From: Centroscyllium fabricii
Lineage: Eukaryota
Assembly (NCBI GenBank): GCA_051313645.2
Contig: JBNRSN020000004.1
Coordinates: 336,784,001 to 336,848,000, forward strand
Direction of reading: 5' to 3'
DNA: 64,000 bases
Shown: positions 7,406 through 64,000 of the stretch, in pieces
Layout: each line of letters begins with the position of its first letter
Numbering within the stretch: position 1 is the first letter of the stretch
Translations under genes and position numbers: made by a program
Notes under the pieces: generated by a model
Database searches by the model: none
What the model was told of the DNA's origin: nothing
The model's input: the letters and a program-made list of their open reading frames with translations, nothing else

Positions 7406-7522
7406 TCCACACCTGCGGTTGCTGAAATATCAGAGGACGACGACTATGAGATAGCGGTCCTGGGGTCAATTGGAAATGGGCAGGACCAGCCGTGGACCAT
7501 CACCCTAAGCCTGTGTGGCCAC

Positions 7523-21338: not shown

Positions 21339-21737
21339 CAGGGCCGGCTCAAGGTATTTGGGGGCCCCAAACAAGGTATTTTGGGGGCCCCAAACAAGGT
21401 ATTTGGGGGCCCCAAACAAGGTATTTTGGGGGCCCCAAACAAGGTATTTTGGGGGCCCCAAACAAGGTATTTTGGGGGCCCTTTCTGTTTGTGTCTGTAG
21501 ATATGTGTGCACAAGCACAAGGGGGGCTTCTTCTGCCGGCACTAAAACCTACTGTACCCAGTATATAATTATGCACCAGTTATGTACCAGTACATTGTGC
21601 ACAATATTGTGCAGGGGCAATGTATGTCTATCATGGGCTATAATTTAAGAATGAAAACACTTAGGCCTATGAGGGGCCCTCTCAAATCGGGGGCCCTAAA
21701 CAAATGTTTACATCGTTTATATGGTAGGGCCGCCCTG
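21339..21737. mobile_element. hAT-superfamily MITE (399 bp)
   Basis: 8-bp TSD CCGCCCAC (21331-21338, 21738-21745); TIR CAGGGCCGGCTC / GGGCCGCCCTG. Confidence 0.88.
21351..21481. repeat. 22-23-bp tandem repeat, about 5.8 copies
   Basis: Unit AAGGTATTT(T)GGGGGCCCCAAAC with a quasi-palindromic core. Confidence 0.95.
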
Positions 21738-22539
21738 CCGCCCACACTCCAACGCAGAACAAGGAGCAGCGCACGACACGTGCTGGCCGCATCATCAGGC
21801 CACCTCAATGCCTTGCCTGAGACGACACGTGCGGGCCGCATCATCAGGCCACCTCAACACCCCGCCTGAGACTCAACTTTTTATTCTCCATTTTTTTATT
21901 TTACTTTATGCTCCTTTCTCCTCTAACTCGAACTCCGCTCTCCCTCACGGATTCTGGGGGGGAGCTGTGTGGCGACACGCCCACCAGGACCATCGAATCC
22001 GCCTCGGGAGTACTGCGAGATGGCCCCGCCCGCCGGGCGGCGTGATGACGTCACCGCGACTTCCGGCATGATGACATCACCAGGTGGACACCCGGCAGTG
22101 ACGTCACCAACCGCGGGACCTTTAAATATCGTGGTTCCAGGTGGCTCAGTCTCTTTTCGCCACCTGGCCTTAGCTGTGTTAGTAATAAATGATAACTTTC
22201 CGAATCTTCTGTGTCCAGTGTGGTTCTTCAGCCCTGCATGCCTCTACAGCATACTTGGTTAAAGAAATGATATACACTGGTGAAAAATCTACAGGGGTAG
22301 GGGCCAAATGTGGAGAAATTACTGCGAGATTCATAAAAGTTAAGATTCAATTTATTCGTTTGGTGGTTGAAAATTGGGATAGTCATTAATACATAATAAT
22401 ATGCAGCTAGCAGTGTAAAATGTCTTCCATTTGTTCAATGAATTAGCCATGAGCGTTTTGCAAGTAAAGGCATAAGTGATTTTGTTTTAATCAGCTGCTT
22501 TCAGCCTCTGAGTGGTCCAGTGTAGAGCACATTGTGTAG

Positions 22540-30170: not shown

Positions 30171-30621
30171 ATAGATCCCATTTCTGGAAGAACAGGAAGG
30201 AAACAAAGGTTCAGTAATAGCTTCAAAATCTTGCTAAAGATCTTACGATAGAACTCTTTATCTGCCCCTTGTGTAAGCTGCAAACTTAGCATCCTTAGAT
30301 ATGGGAAAGTTGATTGCTAAGTCCGCGCTATCGAGCTATAATAACAGCGGACTAGACTTCATGGTATGGAACCAAGAGATGTTTATTCAACCATTACAGA
30401 GTCTGGAACTGAGCATATCGCTCCACACCCGAACTTATATTCAACTGTGGTAGACCGCGGTATTGTAATATCCTGGCACTACATAAAGTAGTGCCCAGTA
30501 CAAACCCTTAAAGGTACATACACCACATTCCTCCCCTCTTAATTTATCTTTACGGTATAACATTTCAGGATACGAGGGAACTAACAATCAACTATTTATA
30601 TAATAATAAGATATGTACAAG

Positions 30622-33600: not shown

Positions 33601-34908
33601 AGAGGCACCCCTCTGAATGCCTTCCTGTAAAATTTTTCGTTGATCACCGAGAGTGCTGACCCCATGTCTAATTCCATAGATATCTCCACCCTCGCAACCT
33701 TGAGGGGAAACCATATAACACTACGATCTGTGGAATTGCCCATGTTGTGGACCTTGAGACTTCCAAGACCCCACTCGTCTCTATTAGAGTTTTCCGATTA
33801 ATTTTCCGAACCATCTTCCACTAGTTTGTTTAGTTTCTTAGTTTTGGACTGTCTCTGTGGCATTTTAGATATCTTCCCAGATCTGCAAGCTGCCGCTATG
33901 TGGCCCATCTTGCCACACTGTCTGCAATCCTTGTCTTTAGCCCAACACCTACACCTCTTGCCAGAGCGGTAGCACTTTTTAGTGCGTGTTGTAATTTCAT
34001 GGGTTTCGTGGTAGATCCCATTGTTCCTAATCTCGGCTGCCCCTGCAGCAGCTGCCTCATGTGCCACGGCAGTTTCTAATGCCTGCTCTAGTGTGATCAT
34101 CCAAAATTTCACACACTAATCTGCCCCTTAAGTAGTTGGGCAGTTCATCCCCAAATGTACCATTCTTAGACAGTCTTCTGAGTTCCGTTATGTACTCTGA
34201 CTGTGACTCTTCTTTTTGTTGTTCTCTTTTAAAGAACTTGAAGCGTTCTGCTATAAATGGGGGTTTTGGGTTTAAATTCTCCCTTAAAACGTTTATAATC
34301 TCTTGCAGCTTTTTGTCCCCTGGCTTGTCTGGGGACACCAGGGTTCTTAACAACCCGTAAGTTTCAGGTCCCATTGCATTCAACAGCGTGTTTACTTTGT
34401 TGGCATCTGCTACTGTCTGTACTTTACAATAGATGTCAAAGCGTTCTAGATATGCCTCCCAGTCTTCCTTCTCTGGCTGGAAGACCCCACAATTGTTTAA
34501 TCTAGCATTGGTTATTATATTCTGAAACATTTTAAATGGCATCTTTTCCCGCCTTTTTCGCTTCTCTTCCGGCGCTTTCCCACCTAAAGATGGCATTTTC
34601 CCACCTTTCCGTTTCTCTTCTGGTGCTTCCCCGCCTAAAGATGGCGTTTTCCCGCCTTCCCGCTTCTCTTCCGGCACGTTTCCCGCCTCCAAAATGGCGT
34701 TCCCCGCCTTTTCTGTCCTTCGCCGCTGAGTTTTTGATTTCTCCCACGGTCTTTGGGAAGGATTGCGCTCCACCTGCACTCTGTCGTTTTCCTGCGGTTG
34801 GAGGTCCAACCCTGATCCTCGACAACCACCGTGTGTGACTGGCTCTGCCGCTCTGGATCTCCTCGGTCGACCCCGATGTGCGACTGCCGCTGCCGTTGTC
34901 CGTGTCAC
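30622..34908 (-). pseudogene. gag-pol: gag-pol broken by multiple stops and frameshifts
   Basis: Fragments: Gag (WEAYLERF, CRQCGKMGHIAAAC), protease (ELDMGS), RT (KIDLSQAYLQ), RNase H (CDASPYG), integrase (HEGHLG, IDFAGP, SDN, NGLAE). Confidence 0.88.
34533..34712. repeat. About 51-bp tandem repeat (about 3.5 copies) in the gag 5' region
   Basis: Recurring AAAGATGGC..TTTTCCC.CC....CG.TTCTCTTC.GG unit. Confidence 0.75.
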
Positions 34909-35790
34909 TCCGCCGACGTCTGATGTCCGACTGCTTCTGTCGATGTCCTGGCCCCACCTCGAGTCGACGTCCGATGTCCGACTGCCTTTGCTGGGCTAGG
35001 TCCTGTGCTCTGCGGCCTTCCTGCCATTGCTGAGCTGGGTACCCGATTCCTGCTGCCGATGCTCCCGTTAGCGATCTTCCCTGCGATGCTGGCGAGCTGG
35101 CTGTACTGAAGGTGCCATGACACTCCCGATTTTGGAGTGCTGGCTGTCTGTGTTCCCTCTGCATTACTGGAGAATCGCTGCTGCTCCCTCTTTTGGAGTG
35201 CAGGGTGTGTCGTAGTGGTCGATGGTCGACTGCGAGAACTGAAAACTTTTCATTCTTCTTATCAGCCAATTACACAGCTGTGGATTCGACCAACCTCGTC
35301 GCCATTGTTAAGTCCACGCTATCGAGCTATAATAACAGCAGACTAGACTTCATGGTATGGAACCAAGAGATGTTTATTCAACCATTACAGAGTCTGGAAC
35401 TGAGCATATCGCTCCACACCCGAACTTAAAAACAACTGTGGTAGACCGCGGTACTGCAATATCCTGACACTACATAAAGTAGTGCCCAGTACAAAACCTT
35501 AAAGGTACATACACCACATTGGTGCCGAAACATTAAACCAGATCAAACTTCAGGAAATTGCATGGATGTCCAAATTATCTCCTCGGAGCCTCATTTTAAT
35601 GTAGTTAACAAGCAAGTGTTTGTGCGCCAGTACAAATGCTGAACAGAAATGGGACGGTAAATAGATGGAAAACCAGCTTAACACCTCTCTGGCAGTTTCC
35701 CAATTGCCTATCTCCCCTTTGCACACATTGGTTGGCCGACTGATCAGCAAGCATGGTGGTTGTGCGGAAAGGTCATCGACCTGAAACATT

Positions 35791-37458: not shown

Positions 37459-38467
37459 TGTGGTAACCGTTATTACCACTGTAATAGTGAAGCACAATAT
37501 AAACCAGCATGTATAGCGGCTGGGTGCACTGTACATAGTTTTTGTATTACGACACTGTCGCAGGGTCAGGTCAGCCACACCTCTAACTCCTCCCCTCAGG
37601 TGAGTGCCTTATAGGTGGGGTCTGACCTGCCCCCATTCATTCTGTACCTGATGTCCGACCGGAGCGTAGCTCTTTTGTAAAGCTAATAAAAGCCGTGCAG
37701 TTCCCGGACGGGCGCGAGGACACAGTTTCCATCAGGGACCTAACGCCCGCCGGGAGCACCACAGCAGACCCCTGGTCAAGCCTCAGCCCGACAGCCACTA
37801 CCTACCGACCACTGGCCTATACACCATCCACAACCCACCGGATTTTGGCCTATGCACATACACACACCGGAGCCCCCGCCACTACCAGCCGAGGACCAAG
37901 AACCGGACGCCGCACCGCAGGCACAGCAGCAGCCGGAGGGCCCGGCCCCACCGCCACTACCGGCACCAGCATCGACACTACCGGCACCAGCGCCGCCGAC
38001 ACTCCCGGCACCAGCGCCGCCGACACTACCGGCACCAGCGCCGCCAAAACTGCAGGCACCGGCGCTGCTAACAGAGACCCGGCGGTCCTCAAGGCAGACG
38101 CGACCGCCGGAGAGACTTATTATGAACTGCTCTGTCCATTCACCCTGCCGGACTTAATTTTCAAAGAAGGGGTGAATGTGGTAACTGTTATTACCACTGT
38201 AATAGTGAAGCACAATATAAACCAGCATGTATAGCGGGTGGGTGCACTATACATAGTTTTTGTATTACGACACTGTCGCAGGGTCAGGTCAGCCACACCT
38301 CTAACTCCTCCCCTCAGGTGAGTGCCTTATAGGTGGGATCTGACCTGCCCCCATTCATTCTGCACCTGATGTTCGACCGGAGCGTAGCTCTTTTGTAAAG
38401 CTAATAAAAGCCTATAGTTAAGGTAACTACTCGTCTTTAGTATTATTGTATTATTGACGATACGTCA
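37459..38467 (+). mobile_element. Internally deleted Gypsy derivative (partial 5' LTR, integrase tail, PPT, 3' LTR)
   Basis: 5' LTR 37459-37694 stops just after AATAAAAGCC and joins VQFPDGREDTVSIRDL; 3' LTR at 38177-38467; TSD CATAG/CACAG. Confidence 0.88.
37960..38070 (+). repeat. 24-bp tandem repeat encoding PAPAPPTL
   Basis: CCGGCACCAGCGCCGCCGACACTA, about 4.5 copies. Confidence 0.85.
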
Positions 38468-45999: not shown

Positions 46000-46299
46000 T
46001 GACGTATCGTCAATAATCTAATAAAACTAAAGACGAGTAGTTACCTTGACTCAAGGCTTTTATTAGCTTACAATGGAGCTACGCTCCGATCGAACATCAG
46101 GTACAGAATGAATGGGGGCCGGTCAGTCCCCACCTATAAGGCACTCACCTGAGGGGAGGAGTTAGAGGTGTGGCTGACCTGGCCCCACGACAGTGTCGCA
46201 ACACAGGACAGTTGCATCATGCACCCGACCGCTATACATACAGATAATATTGTATACAATATTATGGTGGTAATTACTGTATATACAACGGTTACCACA
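46000..46299 (-). mobile_element. Solo LTR of the 47-62 kb Gypsy lineage
   Basis: Reverse complement closely matches 38177-38467 and 50350-50639; TSD CTATA/CTGTA. Confidence 0.9.
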
Positions 46300-46649
46300 C
46301 TGTAGACATAGGAGTGACCACAGTACCCAACTTGCAAATTCATTGAAAACCATAATTTTTGGTACACGCAGTAGTTAGAAATGAATCTTCTGACTGTATC
46401 CTCTGAATTTTAAACTCAAACAAAGTGGAGTTCACCAGGAACTCAGTGAATGAATGTTGTAGCATTGCAAGATTCATCAACATATTTCAAACCATTCCTA
46501 GATTAATTTGTTAAATGACATGGGTCTGATGCACCTAACGACTTATATAATACATCTGATTCAGTTGTGGAAACTGAAACCATCACTCTGCACTTATTGA
46601 AAGGGTTTATCAGAAGAATTGCTATCAGTGTCAGTAAGCAATATCAGCA

Positions 46650-46752: not shown

Positions 46753-47332
46753 TGATCTCCATATGGACAGTTTCATCATCATACGCTCATCATGCAGTAT
46801 GGCTGCTCTACTATAGCCACAACTGAACAGACATTTGCTGGACTCCCATTACCTACCAATTGCAAAATAATATGCAGAGGACTTTACACAGGTTATTCAA
46901 AATCTGGAAACAATTATCATGCTGGGAGAACCTAATAATAGTCCCAAGTTATCCTCTGAAGCTAACTTATCAGCAATCCATTTTATAATTGTCTCTTTCT
47001 ACATTATATCAGCAGCATTCTTAAAAAAATTGGTATGTCTGCAAACAGTCTTTTATGAAGATTGTGGTAAACCATTTAGTGTAGTTCACACTGTGTTATT
47101 ATTGTATATAGTTTGTGCTAATAAAGTTGTTCCTTTCTGTAAGGACCTGGACCAGCTGACCCCGCCTCCGGGTATGAGTATAAAGGAGGATGCTCCACCC
47201 ACCTGACTCTCATTCCGGGCGGGACTCATCGCGGACCAGGTCTTGTTCTTAGCGAATAAAAGCCTTTGATTATGATTCACCAAAGACTGGCGTAATTGAT
47301 TAGCGCATCAATTTTATTCGCTGAGATTTACA

Positions 47333-50300
47333 ATGGGTGATGAGCAAGGACAGAGCCAACAGCCAGCTGCACCAGACAACAGGAAATCGATCCTCAAGCC
47401 GAAGACTCTCGACCTCAAACCCCAGGCACCGAACGCTTTGAACGATTTCGAGCACTGGCTGAGCTGCTTCGAGTCGTTTCTGGTGGTGGCCGGAGTCAGC
47501 GATACGCACAGGAGACGGGTCCTAGTCTCCTGCGTCAGTGGCAGGGTCTATGCAATCATCAAGAACACCACTGACTATGATGCAGTGTTGGAGCTGCTGA
47601 GGGCTCGGTACCTCCAGCCTGTCAACGCCATCTACACTCGCCATCTACTCGCCACGCGGAGACAACAGCCTGGTGAGTCGAACGAGGAGTGTCTGGAGGC
47701 TCTTCAGGCTCTCGCTCTGCGCTGCGAATGTGCACCCGTTAACGCCCAGGAGCACATGGACCTCCTCGTCCACGATGCCTACATGGCAGGAATCCGATCG
47801 TACCAGCGCGCACCCGCTTGCTCGAGCAGGATAATTTGTCCCTGAACCAGGCGGTGAAGCTCTCCAATGCGGTGGATGGGGCCCTCCGCAGCCTGGATTC
47901 GTACACGGGGTACGGCTCCCACACAGTTTCCCCAGGGCCTTGGGACTCGCGTTTAATGGCCTCGACGGCAACCGTGGCAGCCACGGCGCCATCCAGACAG
48001 CCAGCGCCCCTGAAATGCCATTTTTGTGGCCAAAAATGCCACCCACGAAGCTCCTGCCCAGCGAAGTCGGCATCCTGCTCCAGGAATCTGCTAAGAAAAC
48101 GGCAGCAGCCTGCGATCTCTACGCCACAGAGTGGCCTCAAGTACCTGGCGCCACCCAACAGCGTTTTTCTAATAAACTATTACTTACCTTGCCTCGGGTG
48201 CGGCCTGCCAGCGCCATTTCCCGCGTTCTGCCATCTTCCTCTAAAGTTAAAACGTGGGCGCTGTCTCCATCTTTGGGGGCGCGGCCTTCTTCATGGCTGG
48301 AATGGCGCGAACGGGCGGCAGAGGGCCCGCCCCATCATGTGACGCCGCCATCTCCCCGCGTCACGTCAGCAGCGGTCCACCCCATCATGTGACGACGACC
48401 GAACGGGCGGCAGAGGCCCCGCCCCATCACGTCACGCCGCCATCTCTCCACGTCACGGCAGCAGCGGTTCCCCCCATCACGTGACACCGCCATCTGATCG
48501 CGTCACAGCATCAGCGGTCCCGCCCCATCACGTGACAACGCCATCTTGGTGCAGGACGGCCTGCATACCTACAGCGGAGGGCCTGACGCCATCTTTGCAT
48601 AGGAAGATTTTTAAAGCACAGGCTGCTGCAACAACTAGTAACTTTAAATCAACCTCTGTGGTCCTGGCAGCTGCAACAGACTACTCCAGACCACTTCAGC
48701 ATCCGGGCGCTGCTGCTGCGCCGCGAGCCCTTCGGTCTTCCCGACGGCATTCTCGGAGACTCACCCACCGGTCCGAAACACCAACATGGCCCGCCGCGTG
48801 CGAATCACAGGCGCCGCCACCAACCGCGGACCCTGCATCGCACAAGGGCCCCAGCGCGCACACCACACTTGCCTCTACGGCCCCGAACCCATCTCTTACT
48901 TTATCAACAATGACCACCCGGGTGGAGGGGCACCTCACCCGCTGTCTGTTCGACACTGGGAGTACGGAGAGCTTTATACACCCTGATACAGTGCGCCGTT
49001 ATTCCCTCAGGGTTAGGCCCACGCATCGTAAAATCTCCCTCGCCTCCGAGTCCCAGACTGTGGACGTCATCGGCTGCTGTACAGTCACCATTACCGTGAT
49101 GGGGACGACATACCGCAACTTTCCAATGTACGTCCTCCCACAGCTCTGTGCCCCTATGTTTTTGGCCTGGATTTCCAGTGCCATCTGCAGAGCTTAACAA
49201 TGGCGTACAGTGGTCCCCTGCCTCCTCTCATGGTCAGCAGCCACGACTGCCCTGCCTCACAACCACACTCCTCTTGCGGTCTGTCTACCTTGAAGATAGA
49301 CCCCTCCTCGCTGTTCGCCAACCTTGACCCTGACTGCAAGCCCATTGCAACCAAGAGTCGACGATACAGCGCGGGGGACCACACCTTTATTAAGGCAGAG
49401 GTTGCCCGGTTGTTGCGGGAGGGCATCATCGAGGCCAGTAACAGCCCGTGGCGGGCCCAGGTGGTGGTGGTTAAGTCGGGCAACAAACAGCGCATGGTCA
49501 TTGACGATAGTCAGACCATTAACCGCTACACTGGGCTCGACGCTTATCCGCTTCCTAGGATAAATGATATGGTCAACCAGATTGCCCAGTATAAGGTCTT
49601 CTCCACCATCGACCTTAAGTCGGCCTATCACCAGCTCCCCATCAGAGCTGAGGACCGTAAATACACTGCCTTTGAGGCAAATGGGCGCCTTTTTCACTTC
49701 CTCCGGGTCCCCTTTGGGGTTACCAATGGAGTTTCGGTCTTCCAACGGGAGATGGACAGAATGGTTGACCAGTACCATTTGCAGGCCACATTCCCGTATT
49801 TGGACAATGTCACGATCTGTGGCCATGATCAGCAAGATCATGATGCCAATTTGGACAGGTTTCTCCGTATGGCCCAGCGTCTGAACCTCACTTACAATGA
49901 GGATAAGTGTGTGTTCAACACTAACCGGTTGGCTATCCTCAGCTACGTAATTGAGAACGGGGTCCTCGGTCCTGATCCCGAACGTATGCGCCCCCTTCAG
50001 GAGCTGCCTCTGCCGCACTCCCCCAAATCTTTGAGGAGATGCCTGGGGTTTTTCTCGTATTATGCACAATGGGTTCCCCATTATGCTGATAAGGCCCGGC
50101 CTCTCCTCAGAGCTACCTCATTCCCGCTCCCATTAGAGGCCCAAATTGCATTTTCACATATTAAGCAGGACATCATCAAGGCAACCATGCACGCTATTGA
50201 TGAGTCTCTCCCCTTCCAGGTCGAAAGCGACGCCTCAGAATTCGCCCTGGCCGCCACCCTCAACCAGGCAGGCAGGCCCGTTGCTTTCTTCTCCCGTACC

Positions 50301-50349
50301 CTACAGGGCCCTGAAGTCCGCCACTCTTCAGTGGAAAAAGAGGCCCATG
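47333..50349 (+). pseudogene. gag-pol: gag-protease-RT-RNase H (5' part) of element A
   Basis: ORFs starting at 47333, 47818, 48481 and 49200; CHFCGQKCHPRSSC, CLFDTGS, FPYLDN, SDAS. Confidence 0.88.
48310..48552 (+). repeat. Imperfect about 48-60-bp tandem repeat in the gag-protease linker
   Basis: Recurring CCCCATCA(C/T)GTGAC.CCGCCATCT. Confidence 0.75.
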
Positions 50350-50663
50350 TGTGGTAACCATATATATGTATATAAATTACCACTGTAATATTGGTGCCAA
50401 TATTACCACTGTACATAGCGGTCGGGTGCATAAGATGTTGCGACACTGTCGTGGGGCCAGGTCAGCCACACCTCTAACTCCTCCCCCAGGTGAGGCCCTT
50501 TATAGGTGAGGACTGACCGGACCCGTTCATTCTGTACCTGTTGTTCGTTCGGAGTATAGCTCCTATGTAAGTCAATAAAAGCCTGTAGTTAAGGTCACTA
50601 CTCGTCTTTGGCTTTATTGAGTTAATTGACGATACGTCAGTTTTATTGACTTAAAAATTCGAA

Positions 50664-53600
50664 ATGGAGAGCGGCGCAGTAAAACCAAAGAAGCTGGACA
50701 TCAGTCCACAGGACCCAGCTGCCGCCACTACCTTCGAACACTGGTTCGGTCTCCTGGAGGCCTACATGGACGCCGCCAAGGCTACAACCGACGGGAACAA
50801 GCTACAGGTTCTCCGGTCCAGGATCTCCAGCCGAGTATTCTCCCTCATCTGGGACGCCAAAACGTACCCAATGGCGGTGGCGAAACTGCGAAAATGCTAT
50901 GAGCGCCCAGTCCACTCTGTCTATGCCAGACATGTGCTCGCGACCAGACCACAACTACTGGGTGAGTCGAATGAACAGTTCGAGCAGGCACTCCAAGCCC
51001 TGGTACGGGTCTGTGGCTGCCAACCACGGACAGCAGAGGAGGAGGCGAATCTCCTCGTCCGAGATGCCTATGTAACAGGACTAAGGTGCGTTGAGGCCCG
51101 CCAGCGGCTGCTAGAGAAAGACTCCCTAACTCTAGAGGAGGCGATCTCCATCTCGAACTCGGTGGAAGGTGCACGCAACAAGCTGCAGGCGTACAGCGGC
51201 ACAAACCCGCAGGTCTACGACGTGTGGGCTGCACCACAACGGGCCCAGGCCTGGGCAGCACCACAACGGGCCGAGACCCCCACGATGGCAGCGACAGCCG
51301 CAAAGACGCAGGCGGACAGAAAGTGCTACTTCTGCGGCCAGGGATTACATCCACGGGCGAGATGCCCAGCGAGGACCGCGACCTGCGAGAGGTGCTCCAA
51401 GAAGGGACACTATGCAAAGGCCTGCAGATCAGCCCTGGCGCCCAACTCCAGGTACAACAGCGCAGCCTGCGAAAGCTCCGCCAGGCCTCAGGTAAGCTGC
51501 AATGGCAGCGCGATCCAGCGACGGTCCGGGGGTAGAGAAAAAGCACCCCCATCTCCCACCCTGATGCGGCAAAGGCCGGCTGCACCCACGGCACGCCAAG
51601 CTCAGCCACGGCCGGCCAGGCGCGACCCCCCAACGCCGGTAGCACGCCCAGCGCGGCCCGCTGCGTGCGAATCACGGGCACCGCCAACCCAACCACCGCG
51701 GCTCGCTGCGTGCGAACCACGGGCACCGCCAACACAGCCACTGCGGCCCGCTGCGTGCGAACCACGGGCGCCGCCAAAGCTCTCACAGCGGTCAGCCACG
51801 TGCGAACCACGGGCGCCGCCATCTTGCCTCCAACGGCCCGCCATGTGCGACCCCTCGGCGCCGCCATCTTGTCTCCAGCGGCCCGCCATGTGCGAACCAC
51901 GGGCGCCGCCATCTTGTGTTCAGCCTCAACCAGCAGGGGGCCCCCACACACAAACACACACTTCGGCCTCAGCCATACCAAAAGTCGAACAGGCTAGGCC
52001 GCACACCCTATCGAACTCGATTATGCTGATTAAAGTTAACAGCCATACTACCAATTGCCTGTTCGACACTGGAAGCACAGAGAGCTTCATCCACCCTGAT
52101 ACAGTGCGACGCTATGGACTGCAGATCCTGCCCACGAGCTACCAAGTCTCCCTTGCTTCACAGTCCCACACCGCGGACGTTACCGGCTACTGCTCCTACA
52201 CGCTCACAGTCAAGTGTTGCGTGTACCGCAACTTTAAGTTGTACATCCTCAAGCAACTGTGCACCCCAACCTTACTGGGACTGGATTTCCAGTGCCACCT
52301 TAAGAGCGTGACAATGGAGTTCGGCGGGACCCTGCCCCCCCTCACCGTCAGTAGCCGGGACAGTCCCTTCCCAAAGCGGAGCCCGGCCTGCGGCCTCTCC
52401 ACCCTGAAAATCGACCCCACCTCACTGTTCGCCAATCTCGACCCCAACTGCAAACCTATTGCTACCAAGAGTCGGCTGTACAGTGTGGGGGATCGGACAT
52501 TTATCAGGTCGGAGGTCGGGCGTATGCTGAAGGAGGGGATAATTGAAGCCAGCACCAGTCCCTGGCGGGCCCAGGTTGTAGTGGTGAAGACTGGCGAGAA
52601 ACAGCAGCTGGTTATCGATTACAGCCAGACTATTAACTGCTACACCGGGCTCGATGCCTACCCACTCCCCCGCATCTCGGACATGGTCAACCAGATCGCC
52701 CAATATAAGGTGTTCTCCACAATCGACCTTAAGTCGGCGTATCACCAACTCCCGATCCGGAAAGCCGACCGCCCGTACACCGCCTTCGAGGCAAACGGTT
52801 GGCTCTACCACTTCCTCCGGGTCCCCTTCGGCGTGACCAATGGAGTGTCAGTGTTCCAACGGGAGATGGACCGCATGGTTGACCAGAACGGGTTGCGGGC
52901 CACCTGCCCCTACCTGGACAACGTGACTATCTGCGGCCATGACCAGCAGGACCACGATGCCAATCTGGCCAAATTCCTTGACACGGCGGAACGGCTGGAT
53001 CTAACGTATAACAAGGACAAATGTGTCTTTAATACAGATCGGCTCGCCATCCTCGGATACGTGGTGGAGAATGGGGTCCTCGGCCCCGACCCACAGCGTA
53101 TGCGCCCATTGCAGGAACTGCCCCTTCCTCACAACCCCAAAGCCTTGAGGAGATGCCTAGGATCTTTCTCCTATTACGCACAATGGGTCCCACAGTTCGC
53201 GGACAAGGCTAGACCACTCCTCAAGGCTGCCGCCTTCCCTCTCTCGGTAGAAGCCCAAACGGCATTCACCCGGATAAAGGAAGACATCATCAAGGCGACC
53301 ATGCACGCCGTTGATGAATCCATCCCTTTCCAGGTGGAGAGTGACGCTTCGGACTTTGCCCTTGCCGCCACCCTGAATCAGGCAGGCAGGCCCGTAGCGT
53401 TTTTCTCCCGCACCTTACAGGGACCCGAAATTCGCCACTCTGCAGTGGAAAAGGAGGCCCAGGCCATCGTGGAGGCCGTGCGCTATTGGCGTCATTACCT
53501 GGCCGGTAAGCGTTTTACCCTACTCACCGACCAGCGGTCGGTTGCGTTTATGTTTAATAATAAACAAAAGGGTAAGATCAAGAATGATAAGATCCTGCGG

Positions 53601-54830
53601 TGGCGGATCGAGCTCTCGACTTACGAGTACGACATTCTTTACCGACCAGGCAAACTCAATGAACCCCCGGACGCACTGTCCAGGGGAATGTGCGCCAATG
53701 CCCAGCTAGACCGGCTGAAGGACCTCCACGAACGCCTCCGTCACCCGGGTGTCACCAGACTCGCCCACTTCGTTAGATCCTGTAGCCTCCCCTACTCCAT
53801 CACGGAGATCAAGGCTATGACCTGAGAGTGCGCTGTTTGCGCCGAGTGCAAACCCCAATTTTTCAGGCCAGACACGGCGCACATCATTAAGGCCACCCGC
53901 CCCTTTGAACGTCTAAGCGTGGACTTCAAAGGCCCCCTCTCCTCCACCGACCGCAACTCGTACTTCCTCATGGTCGTAGACGAGTTCTCCCCCTTCCCCT
54001 TCGCCTTCCCCTGCCCAGATATGACGAGCGCAACGGTGATAAAACACTTCACCACGCTGTTCGCCATTTTCGGTCTCCCCAGCTACATTCATAGCGACCG
54101 GGGGTCATCGTTCATGAGCGATGAACTGCGCCAGTTTCTGCTCCAGAAAGGGGTTGCCTCGAGCATAACGACCAGTTACAGCCCCCGGGGGAACGGCCAG
54201 GTAGAAAGGGAGAATGGGATCATCTGGAAGGCGGTCACCCTGGCTCTGAAGTCCAGAGGCCTTCCAGTGTCCCATTGGCAGGCAGTCCTCCCCGACACGC
54301 TGCACTCGATACGCTCCCTGCTATGTACTGCCACCAACGCCACCCCTCATGATTTATTGTTTTCCTTTCCCAGGAAGTCGACTTCGGGGACAGCTCTTCC
54401 ACCGTGGCTCACGACGCCGGGGCCGGTCTTCCTTAGAAAACACGTCCGCGGCCACAAGACCGACCCCCTGGTAGACAAGGTGCAGCTCCTGCACGCCAAC
54501 CCACAGTACTCCTACGTGCAGTTCCCGGACGGGCGCGAGGACACCATCTCCATCAGGGACCTAGCGCTCGCCGGGAGCACCAGCTCGCCCAGCCACGATA
54601 TTTCGACCACCCCCTGCACCTACAGTGGCCACCAAGGTATCCAGAGCCCCAGACGTGGCCAGCCCAAGACCACCATTCGGATGGCTCGGACCAACCACCA
54701 CCACCAGCATCTGAAGTTTTGGCACCAGCGCCGCTGTCACCACCACCGGACCCGAGCGGGACGGATCACACGGAACTTCTGCCAGAGCCCCGGCGGTCCT
54801 CCAGACAGACGCGACCGCCGGACAAGTTAA
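50664..54830 (+). pseudogene. gag-pol: Single-ORF gag-pol of element B with a nonsense codon at 53823-53825
   Basis: ORFs 50664..53825 and 53919..54830 share a frame; two CCHC knuckles, DTGS, YLDN, RNase H, integrase D,D,E. Confidence 0.92.
51652..51918 (+). repeat. 45-bp coding tandem repeat (PAACEPRAPP...), about 6 copies
   Basis: GCGGCCCGC....GTGCGAACCACGGGC.CCGCCA recurs every 45 bp. Confidence 0.88.
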
Positions 54831-55182
54831 TAATGAACTGCTCTGTCCATTCACCCCGCCGGACTTAAATTTTCAAGAAGGGGTGAATGTGGTAACCATA
54901 TATATGTATATAAATTACCACTGTAATATTGGTGCCAATATTACCACTGTACATAGCGGTCGGGTGCATAAGATGTTGCAACACTGTCATGGGGCCAGGT
55001 CAGCCACACCTCTAACTCCTCCCCCAGGTGAGTCCCTTTATAGGTGAGGACTGACCGGACCCGTTCATTCTGTACCTGTTGTTCGTTCGGAGTATAGCTC
55101 CTATGTAAGTCAATAAAAGCCTGTAGTTAAGGTCACTACTCGTCTTTGGCTTTATTGAGTTAATTGACGATACGTCACCATG

Positions 55183-56631
55183 CAATTGTGGAAGCAGTGC
55201 ACCACTGGCGCCACTATTTGGCCGGTAAGCGTTTTACCCTTCTTACTGACCAGCGGTCAGTAGCGTTTATGTTCCACCATAAACAGAAGGGTAAGATCAA
55301 GAATGACAAGATCCTCAGGTGGCGGATCGAACTCTCCGCCTTTGAGTACGACATTCTGTACCGGCCAGGGAAGCTTAATGATCCCCCGGACGCCCTGCCC
55401 CGAGGATCGTGTGCCAGTGCCCAGTTGGGTAGTCTGAAGACCCTCCACGCTAATCTCTGCCACCCGGGGGTCACCAGGCTCGCTCACTTCGGCAAATCAC
55501 GCAATCTCCCTTATTCCATTGTGGAGATCAAGGCGATGACGCAGGAGTGCCCTGTCTGTGCTGAGTGCAAGCCCCAGTTCTACAGGCCTGACAGGGCGCA
55601 CCTCATCAAGGCCACCCGTGCATTTGAGCGCCTGAATGTGGACTTTAAGGGTCCCCTCCCCTCTACCAATCGTTACTCGTACATCCTCACTGTGGTCGAC
55701 GAGTTCTCCCATTTCCCTTTTGCATTCCCATGCACAGATATGATGAGTGCGACAGTGATAAAGCATTTTATCACGCTATTCGCCATTTTCAGCCTCCCCG
55801 GCTTCGTACACAGCGACCGGGGGTCCTCTTTTATGACCAACGAACTGCGTCACTTTCTGCTCGTGAGGGGGGTTGCCTCGAGCAGAACGACCAGTTACAA
55901 CCCCCGGGGGAATGGCCAGGTAGAGCGGTTTAATGGGACCATCTGGAAGGCCATTTCTCTGGCCATTCGATCCAAAGGCCTTCCAACCTTACACTGGCAG
56001 GAGGTCTTCCAGGATGCGCTACTCGTTCCCTTTTGTGTACAGCTACCGGTTGCACTCCTCACGAGAGACTCTTCTCTTTCCACAGGAAATCGACTTCGGG
56101 GACGTTGCTGCCGACGTGGCTTACCAACCCGGGGCCGGTCCTGCTTCATGGGCATGCCCGGCGGCACAAGACGGACCCTCTTGTTGAACGTGTGCGCCTG
56201 CTGCATGCCAACCCTCAGTACACTTACGTGGAGTACGCAGACAGGCGTGAGGATACCGTCTCAATTAGAGACCTCGCGCCCGCTGGAGACGTTCATGGGG
56301 AGTTGTTGGCGGAGCCCTTGCCCTCCAGGTCGCACTTCCACAACAGGGGCCGACTTTTCATTCACCGGCGCACATTACATCGGGGCCCTTGCCACCTACA
56401 ATGCACGACAGAGTTCATCACATTGCTCAACCTCCGGCGGCTGCTACACCTCCACCAGATCTTCCTGCGTATGAACCTCCTCTTCCACCGGTGGAGTCCC
56501 TGTTCACTTCGGGAGCCCCGTCAGCATCTTTTCCGATTGCGACTACTCCCGCTTTTTCATGTGAATCGCCATTGCTTCGCAGGTCTTCTCAGACTGTTCG
56601 ACCTCCTCAAAGACTGATAACGCAGTGCTGA
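55183..56631 (+). pseudogene. pol: RNase H end and integrase of element A
   Basis: AIVEAVHHWRHYLAGK continues EKEAH from 50349; HHCC, DFKGP, SDRG, NGQVE; frameshift near 56020. Confidence 0.88.
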
Positions 56632-56959
56632 TGTTCGCCCCGCGGGACTTGTTTTTTAAGGAAGGGGTGAATATGGTGAACCATTTAGTGTAGTTCACAC
56701 TGTGTTATTATTGTATATAGTTTGTACTAATAAAGTTGTTCCTTTCTGTAAGGACCTGGACCAGCTGGTTTATACTCATACTCCGGGTATGAGTATAAAG
56801 GAGGATGCTCCACCCACCTGACTCTCATTCCGGGCGGGGCTCATCGCGGACCAGGTCTTGTTCTTAGCAAATAAAAGCCTTTGATTACGATTCACCAAAG
56901 ACTGGCGTAATTGATTAGCGCATCAAAGATGAAGCAGCGCTACCCCCACATACACTCAG

Positions 56960-57330
56960 AATTATAGAATGATACAGCACAGTAGGAGACCATCCGTCAT
57001 GTCGCGACAATGCCGGCGCAGTGAAAGAACTATCCAATTAGTCCCACTTCCCTGCTCTTTTCCTATAGCCCTGTAAATGTTTCCCTTCAGGTATTTATCC
57101 AATTACCTCTTGAAAGTTGTTATTGAATCTGCTTCCATCACCCTTTCAGGTAGCGCATTCCAGAACATTACAACTCGCTATGTAACTTTTTTTTTTCTCA
57201 TGTCGCCTCTGATTCTTTTGCCAATTACCTTAAATCTGTGTCCTTTGGTTAGTGACTCTTCCGCCACTGGAAACAGGAGGTGTGACAGACAAAAGAGTAC
57301 TAAATATACTCTGTCAAAACCCTTCATGAT
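56960..57330 (-). mobile_element. CR1 3' fragment split by element C; continues at 61993-62240
   Basis: MKGFDRV...TKGHRFKVIGKRIRGDMRK on the minus strand; upstream CR1 coding sequence resumes after 61992. Confidence 0.75.
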
Positions 57331-60300
57331 TGTGATAAACATGTATATCACTTGTATATAGTTGACTGCCATGTATTATGATGTAACCTATACCTGTACT
57401 GTATTACACTGTTCTGTGAGATGACACCTGGGACATGCCCAGGTTGGCTCCGCCCACGACTCCTCCCCCGCAGGAGGAGGTATATAAGTGACTGCCCCCA
57501 TCCCCCATGCCATTCCCGGGGACAGTCGACTTGCTGGTGTGTGTTCCAGGTGTAGTGAATAAAAGCCTGATTGTTCCTAATTACTACTCGACTCCGAGGA
57601 CGTTATTGAAGGTTACAATTTTATTCACTACTGTTAAAAATGGATACCACAATGCTCAAGCCAGCAGTGTTCGAAGTGGATCCCCGATCACCAGGAGCAG
57701 CGAACGCCTTCTCACACTGGCGCAATGTACTCGAAGGATACATCAGAGCCAATGCAGCGGTCATCATGACCGAGGAGCAAAAACGGCGACTCCTCCACGC
57801 CCGGGTGGGCCCTCAGGTGTACTCGATGATAGTGGACGCCCCATCGTTCCAAGAGGCCCTCAGGATTCTCGAGGCGGAATACAATCGGGCACCAAATGTG
57901 GTCCACGCTAGGCACAAACTCGCCACCAGAAAGCAACAAACCAGTGAGTCAAGTGTGCAGTTTCTAAGAGCCCTTAGAATACTGGCGCGAGACTGTGACT
58001 GCAGAGCGCTAACGGTCCAAGTCCATATAGACAGCCTTATCAGAGACGCCTACGTAACAGGCTTAAAATCGGACTATGCCAGGCAGAGACTGCTGGAGCA
58101 GAACGGCCAGGACTTACAGGCGACTACAGACTTGGGGCACGCGCTGGATAGCGCCTCAACGGACTTATCCTCATACTCAAATAACTATGCAGGCCCAGCC
58201 CCGCAATCTTGGACAGTGCCGGCGCAACGACCGGCAGAAGAACTAATCACAGAGGCCTACGCGAAAACGGCAGCCAAATGCTATTTCTGTGGACAATCCC
58301 AGCACTCAAGACACAGCTGCCCTGCTAGAGAAGCGACCTGCTCGAAATGCGACAAGAAAGGACATTATGCGAAGGTTTGCAAGAACACTAGCATAAAATC
58401 GAAACTGGGTAGCGCCGCGTGTGGAACAGGGGAGCAGCCATATTGGGCTCACCCATCCCCCACTCAGCATCCCTTGTGGCAGCAGCAGCAACAGCGGCCA
58501 TCTTGGACTCAGCCTCCACAGTACACCACATGGCGGCAGCCATCTTGGGGAGCGGCCTCGGAGGACTACTCTCCGGATCAAGACGACTTGGAGGACCCTG
58601 TGTTAGCATCGATGACCATCGACCAGAGGAAGACTCAACCGCTGGAGAAATCTATGATGCCGGTGGAAGTCAACGGTGAAGAGGTGGTGTGCCTGTTCGA
58701 CAGCGGGAGCACAGTAAGTTTTATACACCAAAGTACTGTAAAGCGCCTCTCCCTTAGAGTAATCCCTGCCTGCCAGAGAATATCTATGGCATCCAAGTCG
58801 GAATTTTCTGACGTCACCGGGCGCTGCACTGTAACACTTAATGTCCAGGGCGCAATATTTAACGATTTTAGTTTTTACGTGCTGCCGCAGCTCTGCGCCC
58901 CCCTACTCCTGGGACTGGATTTCCAGTGCCACCTCCAGAGCGTTACGATGGCATTCGGCGGACCCCTTCCCTCACTCACAGTCAGAAACCGCGGCTCAAT
59001 GCGGTACCCCCAGCACACTACCTGTGGCCTCTCGACCCTTAAGGTTGCCCCTCCATCCCTCTTTGCCAACCTCACCCCAGACTGCAAGCCCGTCGCCACC
59101 AAAAGTAGGCGCTACAGTGCTGGGGACATGGTATTTATAAAATCTGAAGTGCAGCGCCTCCTAAAAGAAGGGGTAATAGAGGCCAGTAATAGCCCCTGGA
59201 GAGCGCAGGTAGTGGTAGTAAAAACCAGAGAGAAGAACCGGATGGTTGTGGACTACAGCCAGACCATAAACCGGTTCACCCAACTAGATGCCTACCCCCT
59301 CCCCCGGATAGCGGACATGGTGAACCAAATCGCCCAATTTAAAGTGTATTCCACGATCGATCTTAAATCGGCTTATCACCAGCTTCCCATCCGCCCAGAG
59401 GACCGTCCTTATACAGCCTTTGAGGCTGACGGTCGCCTCTACCACTTCCTTAGGGTTCCGTTTGGTGTCACGAATGGGGTCTCGGTCTTCCAAAGGGAGA
59501 TGGACCGAATGGTTGATCGGTACGGGCTGCGAGCCACTTTCCCGTATCTTGATAATGTGACCATCTGCGGCCATGACCAGCAGGACCATGACGCCAACCT
59601 CCAAAAATTTCTCCACACGGCCAAAACCCTGAACTTAACATACAATAAGGAGAAATGTGTTTTTAGCACCGCCCGTCTGGCCATCCTCGGCAGCGTGGTG
59701 GAGAACGGAGTCATCGGTCCAGACCCGAACCGCATGCGCCCCCTCATGGAGCTCCCCCTCCCCCACTCCCTCAAAGCCCTTAAATGGTGTTTGGGATTTT
59801 TCGCCTATTATGCCCAGTGGGTCCCTAATTATGCGGACAAAGCTCGGCCACTACTTAAATCGGCCTCTTTTCCCCTTTCTGCAGAAGCCAACTCGGCGTT
59901 CTGCAGAATTAAAAACGATATTGCCAAAGCCACGATGCACGCTGTGGATGAGTCCGTCCCGTTTCAGGTAGAGAGTGATGCATCTGACTTTGCCCTGGCC
60001 GCCACCCTTAACCAGGCGGGCAGACCCGTGGCCTTCTTTTCACGTACCCTCCAAGGCCCCGAAACCCGCCACTCCTCAGTCGAAAAGGAGGCCCAGGCCA
60101 TCGTTGAAGCAGTGCGGCATTGGAAGCACTACCTGGCCGGCAAACGTTTTACCCTGTTGACTGACCAACGATCAGTCGCATTCATGTTCAACAACAAGGA
60201 ACGGGGTAAAATAAAGAACGACAAGATATTAAGGTGGAGAATTGAACTATCTGCGTTCAATTATGATATCTTGTACCGGCCTGGGATATTTAACGAACCC

Positions 60301-61987
60301 CCAGATGCCCTATCCCGCGGTACCTGTGCCAGCGCACAGGCTGACCGTCTCCAAACCCTTCACAATGACCTCTGCCACCCGGGGGTCACCAGGTTGGTCC
60401 ACTTTGTGAAGTCCCGCAACCTCCCCTACTCCATCGAGGAGGTCAAGACCCTGACCAGCAACTGCCAGGTCTGCGCGGAGTGCAAGCCGCACTTCTACCG
60501 GCCAGACCGGGCGCACTTGATCAAGGCCACTCGCCCCTTTGAACGACTCAGCATCGATTTTAAAGGGCCCCTTCCCTCATCTAATAGGAATGTGTATTTC
60601 CTTAACATTATAGATGAGTACTCCCGCTTCCCTTTCGCCATTCCCTGCCAGGACATGACTTCCGCTACCGTCATCAAAGCCCTTAATAGCATCTTCTCCC
60701 TGTTCGGGTACCCCAACTATATCCATAGTGACCGGGGGGCCTCTTTTATGAGTGACGAGCTGCGTCAGTTTCTGCTAGCGAAAGGGATCGCAACTAGCAG
60801 GACTACCAGCTACAACCCCCGGGGGAACGGGCAGGTAGAGAGGGAGAACGCCGCGGTCTGGAAAGCCATCCAGCTAGCCCTACGGTCTAAAGGCTTCCCA
60901 ATCACCCGATGGCAGGACGTCCTCCCTGAAGCGCTCCACTCTATCCGGTCCCTCCTGTGTACTGCCACTAATGCCACCCCTCACGAACGACTTTTTGCCT
61001 TCCCCAGGAAGTCAGCTTCCGGGACCTCGCTACCATCGTGGCTACTATCTCCGGGACCGGTCCTGCTTCGGAAGCATGTGGGGGACACAAGGCAGATCCC
61101 CTAGTCGAACGGGTCCACCTCCTGCACGCCAATCCCCAGTACGCATACATAGCGTACCCCGACGGGAGGGAGGACACCGTGTCCATAAAGGACCTAGCCC
61201 CAGCAGGAGTCCCCAAACCCAGCCCCGCCAGGCAGCCCGCGCTTCCAAGAAACCCCGCCCAGCAGCCCGCGCACCCAAAACGTTCGGTGACGCTGGGCCC
61301 AGTACCCCAGTATGTCCACAAGGCACCTGCGAGCAGCACGACCTGGCCCCAAGCTTGGATCCACAACGCGCGCCCACTAGAGTTAGAGGACGAAGGAGAG
61401 AACGCGCCCCCTGCTGTCAGAATAAGGGCACCACCGCCACACAGAAGTAACACAACAACCACCACTAGTCGACCGGCATCAATAGAGCAACCGACACAAA
61501 CAGCCGCTCCACGACCACGAACACCACAGGCACCACCAGCGGTGCGAAGATCGACGCGGATAACCAGACCGCCTGAAAGACTCAACCTGTAGTCAAAAGA
61601 ACTTTGTTTTAAATAAAAAAAAAAAATTCTTTCCTTATCTCTCTCACTGTAATTATTAGTCTTTCACCCCGCCGTACTTTCGTTTTAAAGAATGGGTGAA
61701 TGTGATAAACGTGTATATCACTTGTATATAGTTGACTGCCATGTATTACGATGTAACCTATACCTGTACTGTATTACACTGTTCTGTGAGATGACACCTG
61801 GGACATGCCCAGGTTGGCTCCGCCCACGACTCCTCCCCTGCAGGAGGAGGTATATAAGTGACTGCCCCCATCCCCCATGCCATTCCCGGGGACAGTCGAC
61901 TTGCTGGTGTGTGTTCCAGGTGTAGTGAATAAAAGCCTGATTGTTCCTAATTACTACTCGACTCCGAGGACGTTATTGAAGGTTACA
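57331..61987 (+). mobile_element. Ty3/Gypsy retrotransposon C, nearly intact
   Basis: 287-bp LTRs at 57331-57617 and 61701-61987 (3 differences by eye); 5-bp TSD ATGAT; PPT before 61701. Confidence 0.96.
57640..61592 (+). CDS. gag-pol: Single-ORF gag-pol of element C with one frameshift near 61080
   Basis: 1154-aa ORF with CCHC knuckles, DSGS, YLDN, RNase H and integrase; the C-terminal GHKADPLVERV...RRSTR..PPERL lies in another frame. Confidence 0.9.
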
Positions 61988-62551
61988 ATGATATTGAACA
62001 CTTCTTTCAAATCTCCCCAACCTCCTCTGCTCTCAGGAGAACAACCCCAGTTTCTCTAGTCTCTCCACGTAACTAAAGACTTTCATCCCTGATATTATTC
62101 TAGTAAATCTAAACTGCACCCTCTCGATGGCCTTGACATCCTTCCTAAAGTGTGATGCCCAGAAGTGGTTACGATACTCTAGCTGGGGCCTAACTAGTGT
62201 TTTAAAGGTTTAACAAACTTCCTTGCTTTTGTACTCTATGGTGTCAATTTTAACTGAGCTGTGGAGGAGGGCTTAGAGCCTTGCGGGGGATTAAAATCGC
62301 TAAAACCAGCAGGCGGGACCCCCCCCCCCCCCCACCTGGTTCCCGACTCCGAGCTATTTTAATCCAGGCGTCCCAAATCTGTCCCACCTGCAACAGTGGC
62401 CTTTATAATACTATTTTAACCATTCCTTGCAATTTTAATGCTTTTCTCATGTGAAACATGCTTGGTGGGAATCATGCCTGTGAAACCTGGTGTGAGCACT
62501 ATTGGCATTAAAGAGGAGATTTGATCAGTCATCATTTGCAGATGGCAGGAC

Positions 62552-64000
62552 TGTCACAGGGTGCCTGTTCCTTTAAGAATTAGAAACAGTTTTTGCTGTT
62601 GCTCCACAGCTGTTTTGAGGAATGGGTTCCCTTGTTATGTCATTAACTGTTCTATTATCTGTGTATTTGCTAGTTGTGCTCTGCTCTCATTGCCTCGAGG
62701 TTATTGGCTATCACCAAATGGTATACTTGCTGGTTTTAGTATATAAACTGGAGGTAGGCTTGAGAGCAGCTGCGGGATCATTGTGTTGTAATGTGTTACT
62801 GAATTGGACTTCTACCACACATTCTTCAGGCCACTGGACGAAGTGGGTACTGCTGTTGAGCTGAGTGGCCGTCAGAGGCAAGGAGGTTGGGAGATCGACT
62901 GACTCAACTTTTACTTTGCACTCTGCTATTTCAGGTGCTCAGGCTGAGTTACCCGACAGGGGCATTGGGGTGGAACTCATATCACTCTGCCTTGACAGTG
63001 CGCCCTGCTATCGGGAACCCAGCAATGGACAACTCATCTGTGGAGTAAGGGCGTTCCCCTGCTTGTGGATCGGAATCCACTACTTGGACATTCGTTTCTT
63101 CATCCGAACCCAGGTTTGGACATTGGTGACCTGTATGCAGAAGCTGTTCCCAAATCCTCTACGAAGTAGGTGGATTGTGATGTCATGCTCGCAGAGGAGG
63201 ACCTGTTCGTTTCTCTTTAAGTGTTTGGATGGTGGTTGTCCAGCTTCTAGAGGAGAGCTCGTTTAAGTGGACAGTTATGCCTGGACTTGTATTTCTCGGG
63301 AGAATGACGCGCTTGGTTGTGTGGCACCCCTCTATCCATTACTCGCTATTTTGGGAAGTCTGTGCCAGTCTTTAGACAAGACTTGTGTTAAATATGTGTC
63401 TTATATAATTGTATATGTGTCTTATATAATTGTATGTTTATGGTATTCTATGGGGTTTTTGTGACAAAGGAGTTTTGCTATCTAAGACGTTTCAGTGTCT
63501 CTGCATTTGGGCCCCGCCTTCATTCCACTTACACCCAACCGTTACAGAATGATCCCGTCAAATGGGGCTCAGCAGACACTGTACCGTCTAAGCACTCCTT
63601 AAATTTTTTTTTTGTAGACTGTTGTCTCTTCTCTGTACCCTCCGCCCACCCTATTTCGGCTTATTGGGTATTTGGGCCGTCACTGTCGGCCCTTAAGGGG
63701 GGGGGTCCTGTCACAGGGTGCCTGTTCCTTTAAGAATTAGAAACAGTTTTTGCTGTTGCTCCACAGCTGTTTTGAGGAATGGGTTCCCTTGTTATGTCAT
63801 TAACTGTTCTATTACCTGTGTATTTGCTAGTTGTGTTCTGCTCTCATTGCCTCGAGGTTATTGGCTATCACCAAATGGTATACTTGCTGGTTTTAGTATA
63901 TAAACTGGAGGTAGGCTTGAGAGCAGCGCGGGATCATTGTGTTGTAATGTGTTACTGAATTGGACTTCTACCACACATTCTTCAGGCCACTGGACGAAGT
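62552..64000 (+). mobile_element. Non-autonomous LTR element with about 1-kb LTRs and a 148-bp interior; 3' LTR cut by the window end
   Basis: 62552 onward is repeated from 63709; the first copy ends ...CCCGTCA (63560) and is followed by PBS-like TGGGGCTC (63563) and PPT AAGGGGGGGGG (63695-63705). Confidence 0.75.

Follow-up and report, generated by a model that had tools for sequence, protein, structure and literature searches.

How does a Gypsy-type LTR retrotransposon start reverse transcription when the position next to its 5′ LTR offers no binding site for a tRNA? The question is raised by three elements, here called A, B and C, in the window, that is, the whole stretch of 64,000 nt of Centroscyllium fabricii DNA that was analysed. 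All three are complete LTR elements flanked by target site duplications (TSDs) of 5 bp, and their gag-PR-RT-RH-IN order, TG...CA LTRs, TSDs and polypurine tracts (ending GGGTGAA) place them in Ty3/Gypsy. Among solved structures, the best relative was the reverse transcriptase (RT) of Ty3 (E 2.7e-48). B was inserted within the RNase H of A, and the two LTRs of each element differed at 10 of 248 aligned nt in A, 3 of 290 nt in B and 3 of 286 aligned nt in C. The features on which the argument draws are the following.

Element A:
47063..47310, + strand: 5′ LTR (TG...CA), TSD AAGAT, paired with the LTR at 56672-56925
47179..47184, + strand: TATA box, at a spacing conserved across families
47210..47215, + strand: initiator-like YCATTC, with a putative +1 at 47212 to which the family-A fossil ends point weakly
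47212..47261, + strand: candidate self-primer of 50 nt, from +1 to the end of the arm
47249..47261, + strand: 13-nt LTR arm with AATAAA, followed by GCC, pairing with 47312..47324
47312..47324, + strand: primer-binding site (PBS) position, complement of the arm (12 Watson-Crick pairs and one G-U)
47333..56617, + strand: broken gag-pol in several frames, interrupted by B inside RNase H
56658..56671, + strand: polypurine tract
56672..56925, + strand: 3′ LTR

Element B:
50350..50639, + strand: 5′ LTR, TSD CCATG, paired with the LTR at 54888-55177
50501..50506, + strand: TATA-like box
50529..50580, + strand: candidate self-primer of 52 nt, with +1 at the A of TCATTC (50527-50532), the same A at which inverted-copy ends pile up in the B subclade
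50568..50580, + strand: 13-nt LTR arm
50609..50619, + strand: second, shorter complement of the arm inside U5, with approximate limits, present in only part of the B subclade
50641..50653, + strand: PBS position, perfect 13-nt complement of the arm
50664..54830, + strand: single gag-PR-RT-RH-IN frame carrying an internal stop and broken further on, without a chromodomain match
54874..54887, + strand: polypurine tract ending GGGGTGAA
54888..55177, + strand: 3′ LTR

Element C:
57331..57617, + strand: 5′ LTR, TSD ATGAT, paired with the LTR at 61701-61987
57481..57487, + strand: TATA box
57512..57564, + strand: candidate self-primer of 53 nt, with +1 at the A of CCATTC (57510-57515), where inverted-copy ends pile up in the C subclade
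57552..57564, + strand: 13-nt LTR arm
57619..57631, + strand: PBS position, perfect 13-nt complement of the arm
57640..61592, + strand: gag-PR-RT-RH-IN with a frame break close to the integrase C-terminus, without a chromodomain match
61687..61700, + strand: polypurine tract
61701..61987, + strand: 3′ LTR

A previous sequence-only reading of this DNA had proposed that the PBS position of A, B and C pairs with a segment of their own LTR. The three pairs were indeed found to be exact reverse complements, in A up to a G-U at position 12, and no TGG follows the 5′ LTRs of these elements. It was equally right that the three other complete Gypsy elements of the window have normal sites, with TGG 0-1 nt past the LTR. 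A single base (A in A, G in B, A in C) separates the LTR-terminal CA from the T run of the PBS position. The extension of the A pairing to 15 bp with one G-U stood only in part: the conserved duplex is of 13 bp with a sharp edge, and the G-U does exist but is apparently private to this copy, copies of the A family elsewhere reading CTAA at that place.

The same reading had claimed covariation from three copies, which the genome-wide comparison strengthened. A degenerate RT motif of the lineage gave 200,970 exact matches in the 7.2-Gb genome, corresponding by a rough estimate of ~4.7 kb per match to ~0.9 Gb, or ~1/8 of the genome. The first 60 matches were taken without regard to the PBS, and a gag-anchored search of these loci yielded 51 upstream regions, A, B and C included, with two more lying at locus edges; none of the 51 carried a TGG primer site. 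Forty-eight copies were scored: three whose 5′ LTR is interrupted were left out, and three others, whose RCC anchor is mutated, were moved by one base once they had been inspected. Over positions 1-13 from the LTR end, 607 of 624 cells were Watson-Crick pairs and three were G-U; the duplex was perfect in 35 copies and had at least 12 pairs in 46, and pairing fell to 18/48 at position 14. The T run always lay one base from CA and the arm directly before RCC, and the register was kept, in that arms with three or four A's face three or four T's. Positions 11-10 of the arm are AG in nearly all copies, after a T or an A; reading this AG as a 3′ splice site was dropped, the AG itself being paired.

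Relatives from metagenomes were drawn from 80 loci, of which 27 were inspected for upstream sequence, 22 passed on and 20, from ~8 families, scored. The duplex is retained in these ~8 invertebrate-type families, whose RT identity is 57-63%: positions 1-13 were Watson-Crick in 256 of 260 cells, with no G-U, and 16 of 20 copies were perfect. Both sets pooled, G-U pairs occupied 3 of 884 cells. Twenty-two distinct perfect haplotypes of arm and PBS were found, 15 of them in one genome, each matching its own LTR. Shuffling the partners among the 22 left 9.1 ± 0.3 of 13 pairs (maximum 10.7 in 10,000 shuffles), a descriptive figure since the haplotypes are related. The numbers of Watson-Crick cells in both sets, the drop at position 14 and the shuffling result thus reject a chance origin of the duplex. 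Across the genome, the matched forms AATAAAA/TTTTATT (193,007) and ATTAAAA/TTTTAAT (72,267) totalled 265,274 against 1,102 crossed forms (613 and 489) spread over families, some sites being counted twice.

The arm overlaps a poly(A) signal in the fish families, which raises the question of what the helix is for. Each of the 48 own-genome arms has one of the hexamers AATAAA and ATTAAA, and no change other than the switch between these two is frequent. Folding gave the duplex a mean pair probability above 0.8 in 39 of the 48 distinct copies, and the hexamer was predicted to be less often unpaired in the 5′ than in the 3′ context (0.01 vs 0.78 in A, 0.06 vs 0.54 in C, 0.03 vs 0.14 in B). Folds of single copies frequently placed a hairpin at the RCC directly after the arm and one at the LTR end, varying between copies; whole-region z-scores were modest (-1.35, -2.88 and -1.70) and are not counted as evidence. 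In the invertebrate set, neither hexamer was present in 13 of the 20 arms, two of these copies having AATAAA further on. The conserved trait is the pairing, not the poly(A) hexamer. Since the invertebrate relatives keep the duplex, often without the hexamer, masking of the 5′ poly(A) signal would be secondary. The earlier suggestion of such masking is therefore plausible as a second function in the fish families, where the hexamer is predicted to be buried, and fails as the conserved core.

Two explanations give the hexamer a larger part. In the first, transcripts that stop early, at the poly(A) site of the 5′ LTR, would anneal in trans to the PBS of a full-length RNA and be trimmed to the duplex, so that the poly(A) overlap would belong to the mechanism. 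The constancy of the hexamer in the 48 own-genome arms agrees with this, and the same fossils ending at +1, described below, would be expected; however, the 13 invertebrate arms without either hexamer, the burial of the hexamer in the full 5′ context (unpaired 0.01-0.06), which should limit 5′ polyadenylation, and the conserved RCC with its frequent hairpin right after the arm, which suggests a site recognised in cis, make a primer in trans improbable. In the second, the duplex would only hide the 5′ poly(A) signal and an overlooked host RNA, such as a tRNA half, would prime. Half-tRNA priming exists in some copia lineages according to the available part of one study (PMC6317226), the hexamer is predicted to be far less accessible in the 5′ than in the 3′ context for A and C, and the comparison with tRNA halves, in which the longest match to the PBS-position sequence was 8 nt, covered Lys and Cys genes only (30 of 63 tRNA matches). 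Against a host primer, each of the 15 perfect haplotypes of one genome follows its own LTR, the duplex ends precisely one base away from the LTR with G-U nearly absent, the duplex persists without the hexamer, and the sequence captured after the LTR was, in the patterns searched, LTR and not host RNA. We regard this explanation as very unlikely.

If the primer comes from the element itself, the affinity of the lineage to the self-priming chromoviruses has to be considered. The nearest named proteins were found in rays and sharks (78-84% identical), followed by sea anemone, nematode and damselfly (59-63%), and no relative was found in the viral contigs searched. In an RT tree of 53 rows, 43 lineage rows formed a clade with 100/100 support, apart from seven chromodomain-bearing metagenome elements and the three TGG elements of the window; these seven stand in for the chromoviruses in place of Tf1 and sushi, and long branches meet among the outgroups. 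The sequence-only reading had seen no chromodomain, and the domain search agreed: a Chromo domain matched neither the frames of A, B and C nor four invertebrate polyproteins, while the positive control matched in three of three metagenome chromovirus ORFs, and the domain was also absent from the domain lists of 120 homologues. By RT placement, the A/B/C lineage is separate from the chromoviruses.

The position of the RNA start then decides which part of the RNA could act as primer. Counted upstream from the end of the arm, most own-genome copies have a YCATTC-like initiator at 50-54 nt and a TATA-like motif at 79-84 nt (57 and 94 nt in one family); among the 20 invertebrate copies TATA motifs were found in only three. 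Contigs from three sequencing runs, aligned to B, were uninformative about its RNA start, its RNA end and polyadenylation. A primer longer than 13 nt that stays attached would sometimes be copied by RT past the 13 nt, so that the LTR would be followed by an inverted copy of itself longer than 13 nt. This prediction was tested, and 1,290 extended inverted copies were found after the LTR (782 in the B subclade, 367 in the C subclade and 141 in family A), ~0.5% of LTR-leader matches, with no match to the reversed-pattern controls. The first 100, 30 and 20 copies of these three groups were scored, 150 of the 1,290. Sixty-nine were long (at least 120 nt) and are taken to be DNA-templated, and 36 ended from -1 to +2 of the initiator A, 19 of them exactly on it. 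Among the copies counted as short, L200 and L177 are long ones with deletions, and L242 is doubtful. The end rate per nt at risk was 9.1% at the initiator vs 1.0% over the preceding 24 nt and 0.15% over 54 nt starting at +7. After repeated junctions were collapsed, 23 of 129 copies ended at the initiator (6.5% vs 1.0%, Fisher p 1e-9; before vs beyond, p 5e-7).

The short inverted copies mostly run on into the interior of the element at many different sites, with 0-8 nt of microhomology. At the commonest acceptor junction, the T opposite +1 was kept in eight of nine copies although the acceptor has C. Copies sharing a junction showed different flanks where visible and 3-5% divergence, compatible with independent origin as well as with amplification. 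In family A, only two of nine short copies ended no more than 2 nt from the initiator and one more at +3; two ran to ~+40. Since copying from a DNA template would not be expected to halt at the initiator, the pile-up is read as the RNA 5′ end. In the own-genome families, the data support an RNA 5′ end ~40 nt upstream of the arm, which would make the arm internal (+38 to +41 onward).

It had been anticipated that a start exactly at the paired segment would reduce the system to ordinary Tf1-type priming, in which transcription starts at the arm and the first 11-13 nt are the primer. The inverted copies, on the contrary, stop at the initiator ~40 nt upstream. With the arm internal, the B and C subclades cannot follow the ordinary Tf1 layout. 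The nearly invariant AG, preceded by T or A, does look like an initiator, and a second start at the arm is conceivable and may apply to the invertebrate relatives; the conserved TATA and initiator spacing in most own-genome copies, the copying up to the upstream initiator and the covariation of positions 12-13, upstream of the AG, nevertheless leave this layout with hardly any probability. An AG-started primer of 11 nt, the Tf1 length, was likewise dropped as positions 12-13 pair and covary. The fossils, the missing chromodomain and the RT tree thus lend support to what had been proposed before, namely self-priming from an internal LTR arm, off the cap site and outside the chromoviruses.

The long inverted copies bear on a further alternative, in which the genomic RNA would be closed into a circle by pairing of its 3′-terminal R copy with the PBS, and this R copy would then be cut to act as primer. 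Among 27 scorable long copies of the B subclade, nine continue through U3 into the polypurine tract, as this alternative would have it, but 14 extend as far as the start of the LTR and have a 5-bp TSD there, which speaks for a DNA template, and the short class stops at the initiator, which only the 5′ copy explains. A 3′-end primer is accordingly judged quite unlikely. The long B-subclade copies fit priming of a plus-strand DNA tail on another LTR copy. Nor do the short inverted copies prove a covalent primer, as a DNA tail on a second intact RNA leaves the same product.

We consider it likely that the lineage self-primes minus-strand synthesis with a ~52-nt 5′ fragment of its own RNA. In this self-priming, transcription would start at the initiator A ~30 nt past the TATA box, as the fossils suggest, and covariation indicates that nucleotides ~+40 to +52 pair with the 13-nt PBS position, which begins one base past the LTR. 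Cleavage would fall on the AAA(A)|RCC junction or no more than one base away from it and would most probably be done by the RNase H of the element's own RT, following the Tf1 precedent; it would leave a 5′ primer of ~52 nt (50-53) held by 13 bp. An RNase H domain was found in the lineage polyprotein, and the register of the duplex would place the cut after AAUAAAA. When LTRs were sought that run into foreign sequence at the predicted cut, 85 matches came up, most of them showing the end of a different LTR element (20 of 25 inspected loci match element E2). The polymerase and RNase H sites of Ty3 RT lie ~13 bp apart (PMC5371799), the length of the duplex, and it may be hypothesised that this spacing sets the cut.

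The primer would then stay attached and be copied during plus-strand strong-stop synthesis, normally for the 13 nt used in the second strand transfer, which would regenerate the PBS from the arm. Such regeneration would explain why covariation is Watson-Crick only and G-U is nearly absent. In ~0.5% of copies, RT would have continued toward the 5′ end of the primer and jumped into the element, giving the inverted fossils, which may alternatively arise from a DNA tail primed on another LTR copy. In the fish families, where the arm coincides with the poly(A) hexamer, only the stretch from hexamer to cleavage would be left for the first strand transfer, and the 5′ poly(A) signal would probably be hidden as a by-product. 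Retroviral poly(A) hairpins, as in HIV-1, also hold the 5′ LTR AAUAAA in a helix, there a local hairpin with priming by a tRNA; the helix is common to both, and here the partner is the primer site itself.

Several known systems resemble this arrangement in part. Like Tf1/Tf2 of Schizosaccharomyces pombe, Tj1, Tosmo and the Tf1/sushi group, as presented in the available parts of four papers (PMC7175516, PMC4600332, PMC10085805, PMC11042837), the lineage lacks a tRNA PBS and has an LTR-adjacent site that pairs with its own LTR RNA. The Tf1 primer consists of the first 11 bases of its RNA, cut by RNase H between bases 11 and 12 (PMC7175516), within a three-duplex structure around the PBS (PMC10085805), and about half of the cDNA carries a PBS copy at its 3′ end (PMC11042837). 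That a PBS copy can stay at the cDNA 3′ end in the Tf1/sushi group is counted as a likeness; helices flank the central duplex there, to which the hairpins of the single-copy folds, varying between copies, may correspond. Unlike Tf1, which uses the first 11 bases and carries a chromodomain, the lineage would use a 13-nt arm at ~+40 to +52 in a ~52-nt primer with an unpaired 5′ part; it has no chromodomain, its RT is 27-31% identical to chromovirus RTs, and its arm, with AAA(A) at the end and RCC next to it, overlaps the hexamer of the poly(A) signal in the fish families. It would therefore work like Tf1 but fall outside Tf1/sushi on primer position, chromodomain and RT placement.

Self-priming was also predicted for plant Tcn1 (gypsy) and TAR/Houba (copia) from LTR complementarity 0-5 bp after the LTR, although these belong to other lineages and hosts and the prediction, in the accessible text, comes without a start site or primer length (PMC6317226). 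The polypyrimidine site of Dictyostelium Skipper and the Conserved Hairpin Site of fungal GalEa similarly lack TGG, and their priming is left unexplained, both papers reporting that the LTR has no complement (PMC5006619, PMC5445492), whereas the complement is perfect and covarying here. Of the named animal Gypsy clades, Saci2 has TSDs of 4 bp vs 5 bp in A, B and C. The arrangement was not described in the accessible portions of the literature searched (PMC6317226, PMC4600332, PMC5341516, PMC2864245, PMC5006619, PMC5445492, PMC3601003, PMC6238403, PMC2871265, PMC13524379, PMC12471100), subscription papers and Repbase aside.

A combined reading can be put forward tentatively, as one about as apt to fail as to hold. 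An animal-wide, non-chromoviral Gypsy clade would have evolved self-priming independently of Tf1, by means of an internal 13-bp duplex measured by the distance from polymerase to RNase H. The capped 50-nt primer would never be removed and would be copied back into the PBS in each cycle, so that arm and PBS co-evolve by templating, and the same helix would silence the 5′ poly(A) signal in cartilaginous fish. More than 1,000 trapped intermediates would map the RNA start, along with LTR-plus-inverted-LTR insertions from paired strong-stop DNAs.

What is new here is the primer-like inverted LTR copies that map the RNA 5′ end upstream of the arm. With such trapped copies, transcription start and primer length would become readable from the genome alone wherever an element has a high copy number and a self-complementary primer site; they also turn the mechanism into three precise predictions of RNA ends. 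In the literature searched, as far as its available parts go, fission-yeast Tf1, whose primer is the first 11 bases of its RNA, is the one element with experimentally demonstrated self-priming. The lineage would thus be a second, separately placed solution of different geometry, present in a vertebrate genome and in invertebrates, and it would imply that RT can choose its cut site without a nearby RNA 5′ end.

Besides the three complete elements of the self-priming lineage (A, B and C), the window holds other LTR-derived sequences, of which two belong to the subclade of B.

Other LTR-derived features in the window
6269-10945, 17233-22249 and 30313-35520: three further complete Gypsy elements, each carrying a TGG primer site
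37459-38467: B-subclade deletion derivative, its 5′ LTR cut off three bases past the arm (the LTR segment complementary to the PBS position) and joined to the integrase-end region, after which come the PPT and an entire LTR
46000-46300, minus strand: B-subclade solo LTR
62551-64000: direct repeat resembling an LTR, with 99% identity between its copies, which extends beyond the window edge and encloses ~860 nt

The reverse transcriptases of the three TGG elements are 26-34% identical to that of C, and the flanks of the deletion derivative differ by one base. The direct-repeat structure, in which no long ORF was found within the ~860 nt between the repeats, is possibly a non-autonomous element. 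An LTR element related to that at 17233-22249 ends no more than one base from the AAA|GCC junction of the self-priming lineage's LTR at 20 of 25 examined loci in which this LTR is joined to foreign sequence at the predicted cut (L351-L375); the count was taken at this junction position only, and an insertion hot spot there would be no more than a possibility.

Within the U5 of B (50609-50619) lies a further arm complement of 8-10 nt, which is also present in B-subclade loci such as L045, L043, L064 and L088 and switches along with the AATAAA/ATTAAA of the arm. It is missing from A, C and several B-subclade families; it could be a temporary fold or a fold of the 3′ LTR. Tandem repeats of 45 nt, variable in copy number, occupy the gag-protease interval of B (51606-51920), and similar repeats, also variable in copy number, are found in A (48308-48546). 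In two gag-anchored loci (L081 and L087) gag is extended at its N-terminus, with an upstream ATG near the PBS.

Elsewhere in the genome, four extended-PBS matches at 378 bp spacing (G000:C335:139983542-139984708) suggest a tandem array derived from a single fossil, that is, a copy whose inverted LTR stretch exceeds the arm. Mini-insertions composed of a single LTR, one base and an inverted U3-plus-arm copy, with a 5-bp TSD on both sides, were observed among the scored extended copies (L171-L270, L271-L300 and L331-L350; for example, L183, L186 and L188), and this structure was present in 14 of the 27 scorable B-subclade long copies. Such insertions possibly arose from two plus-strand strong-stop DNAs, each priming on the other, which were then integrated.
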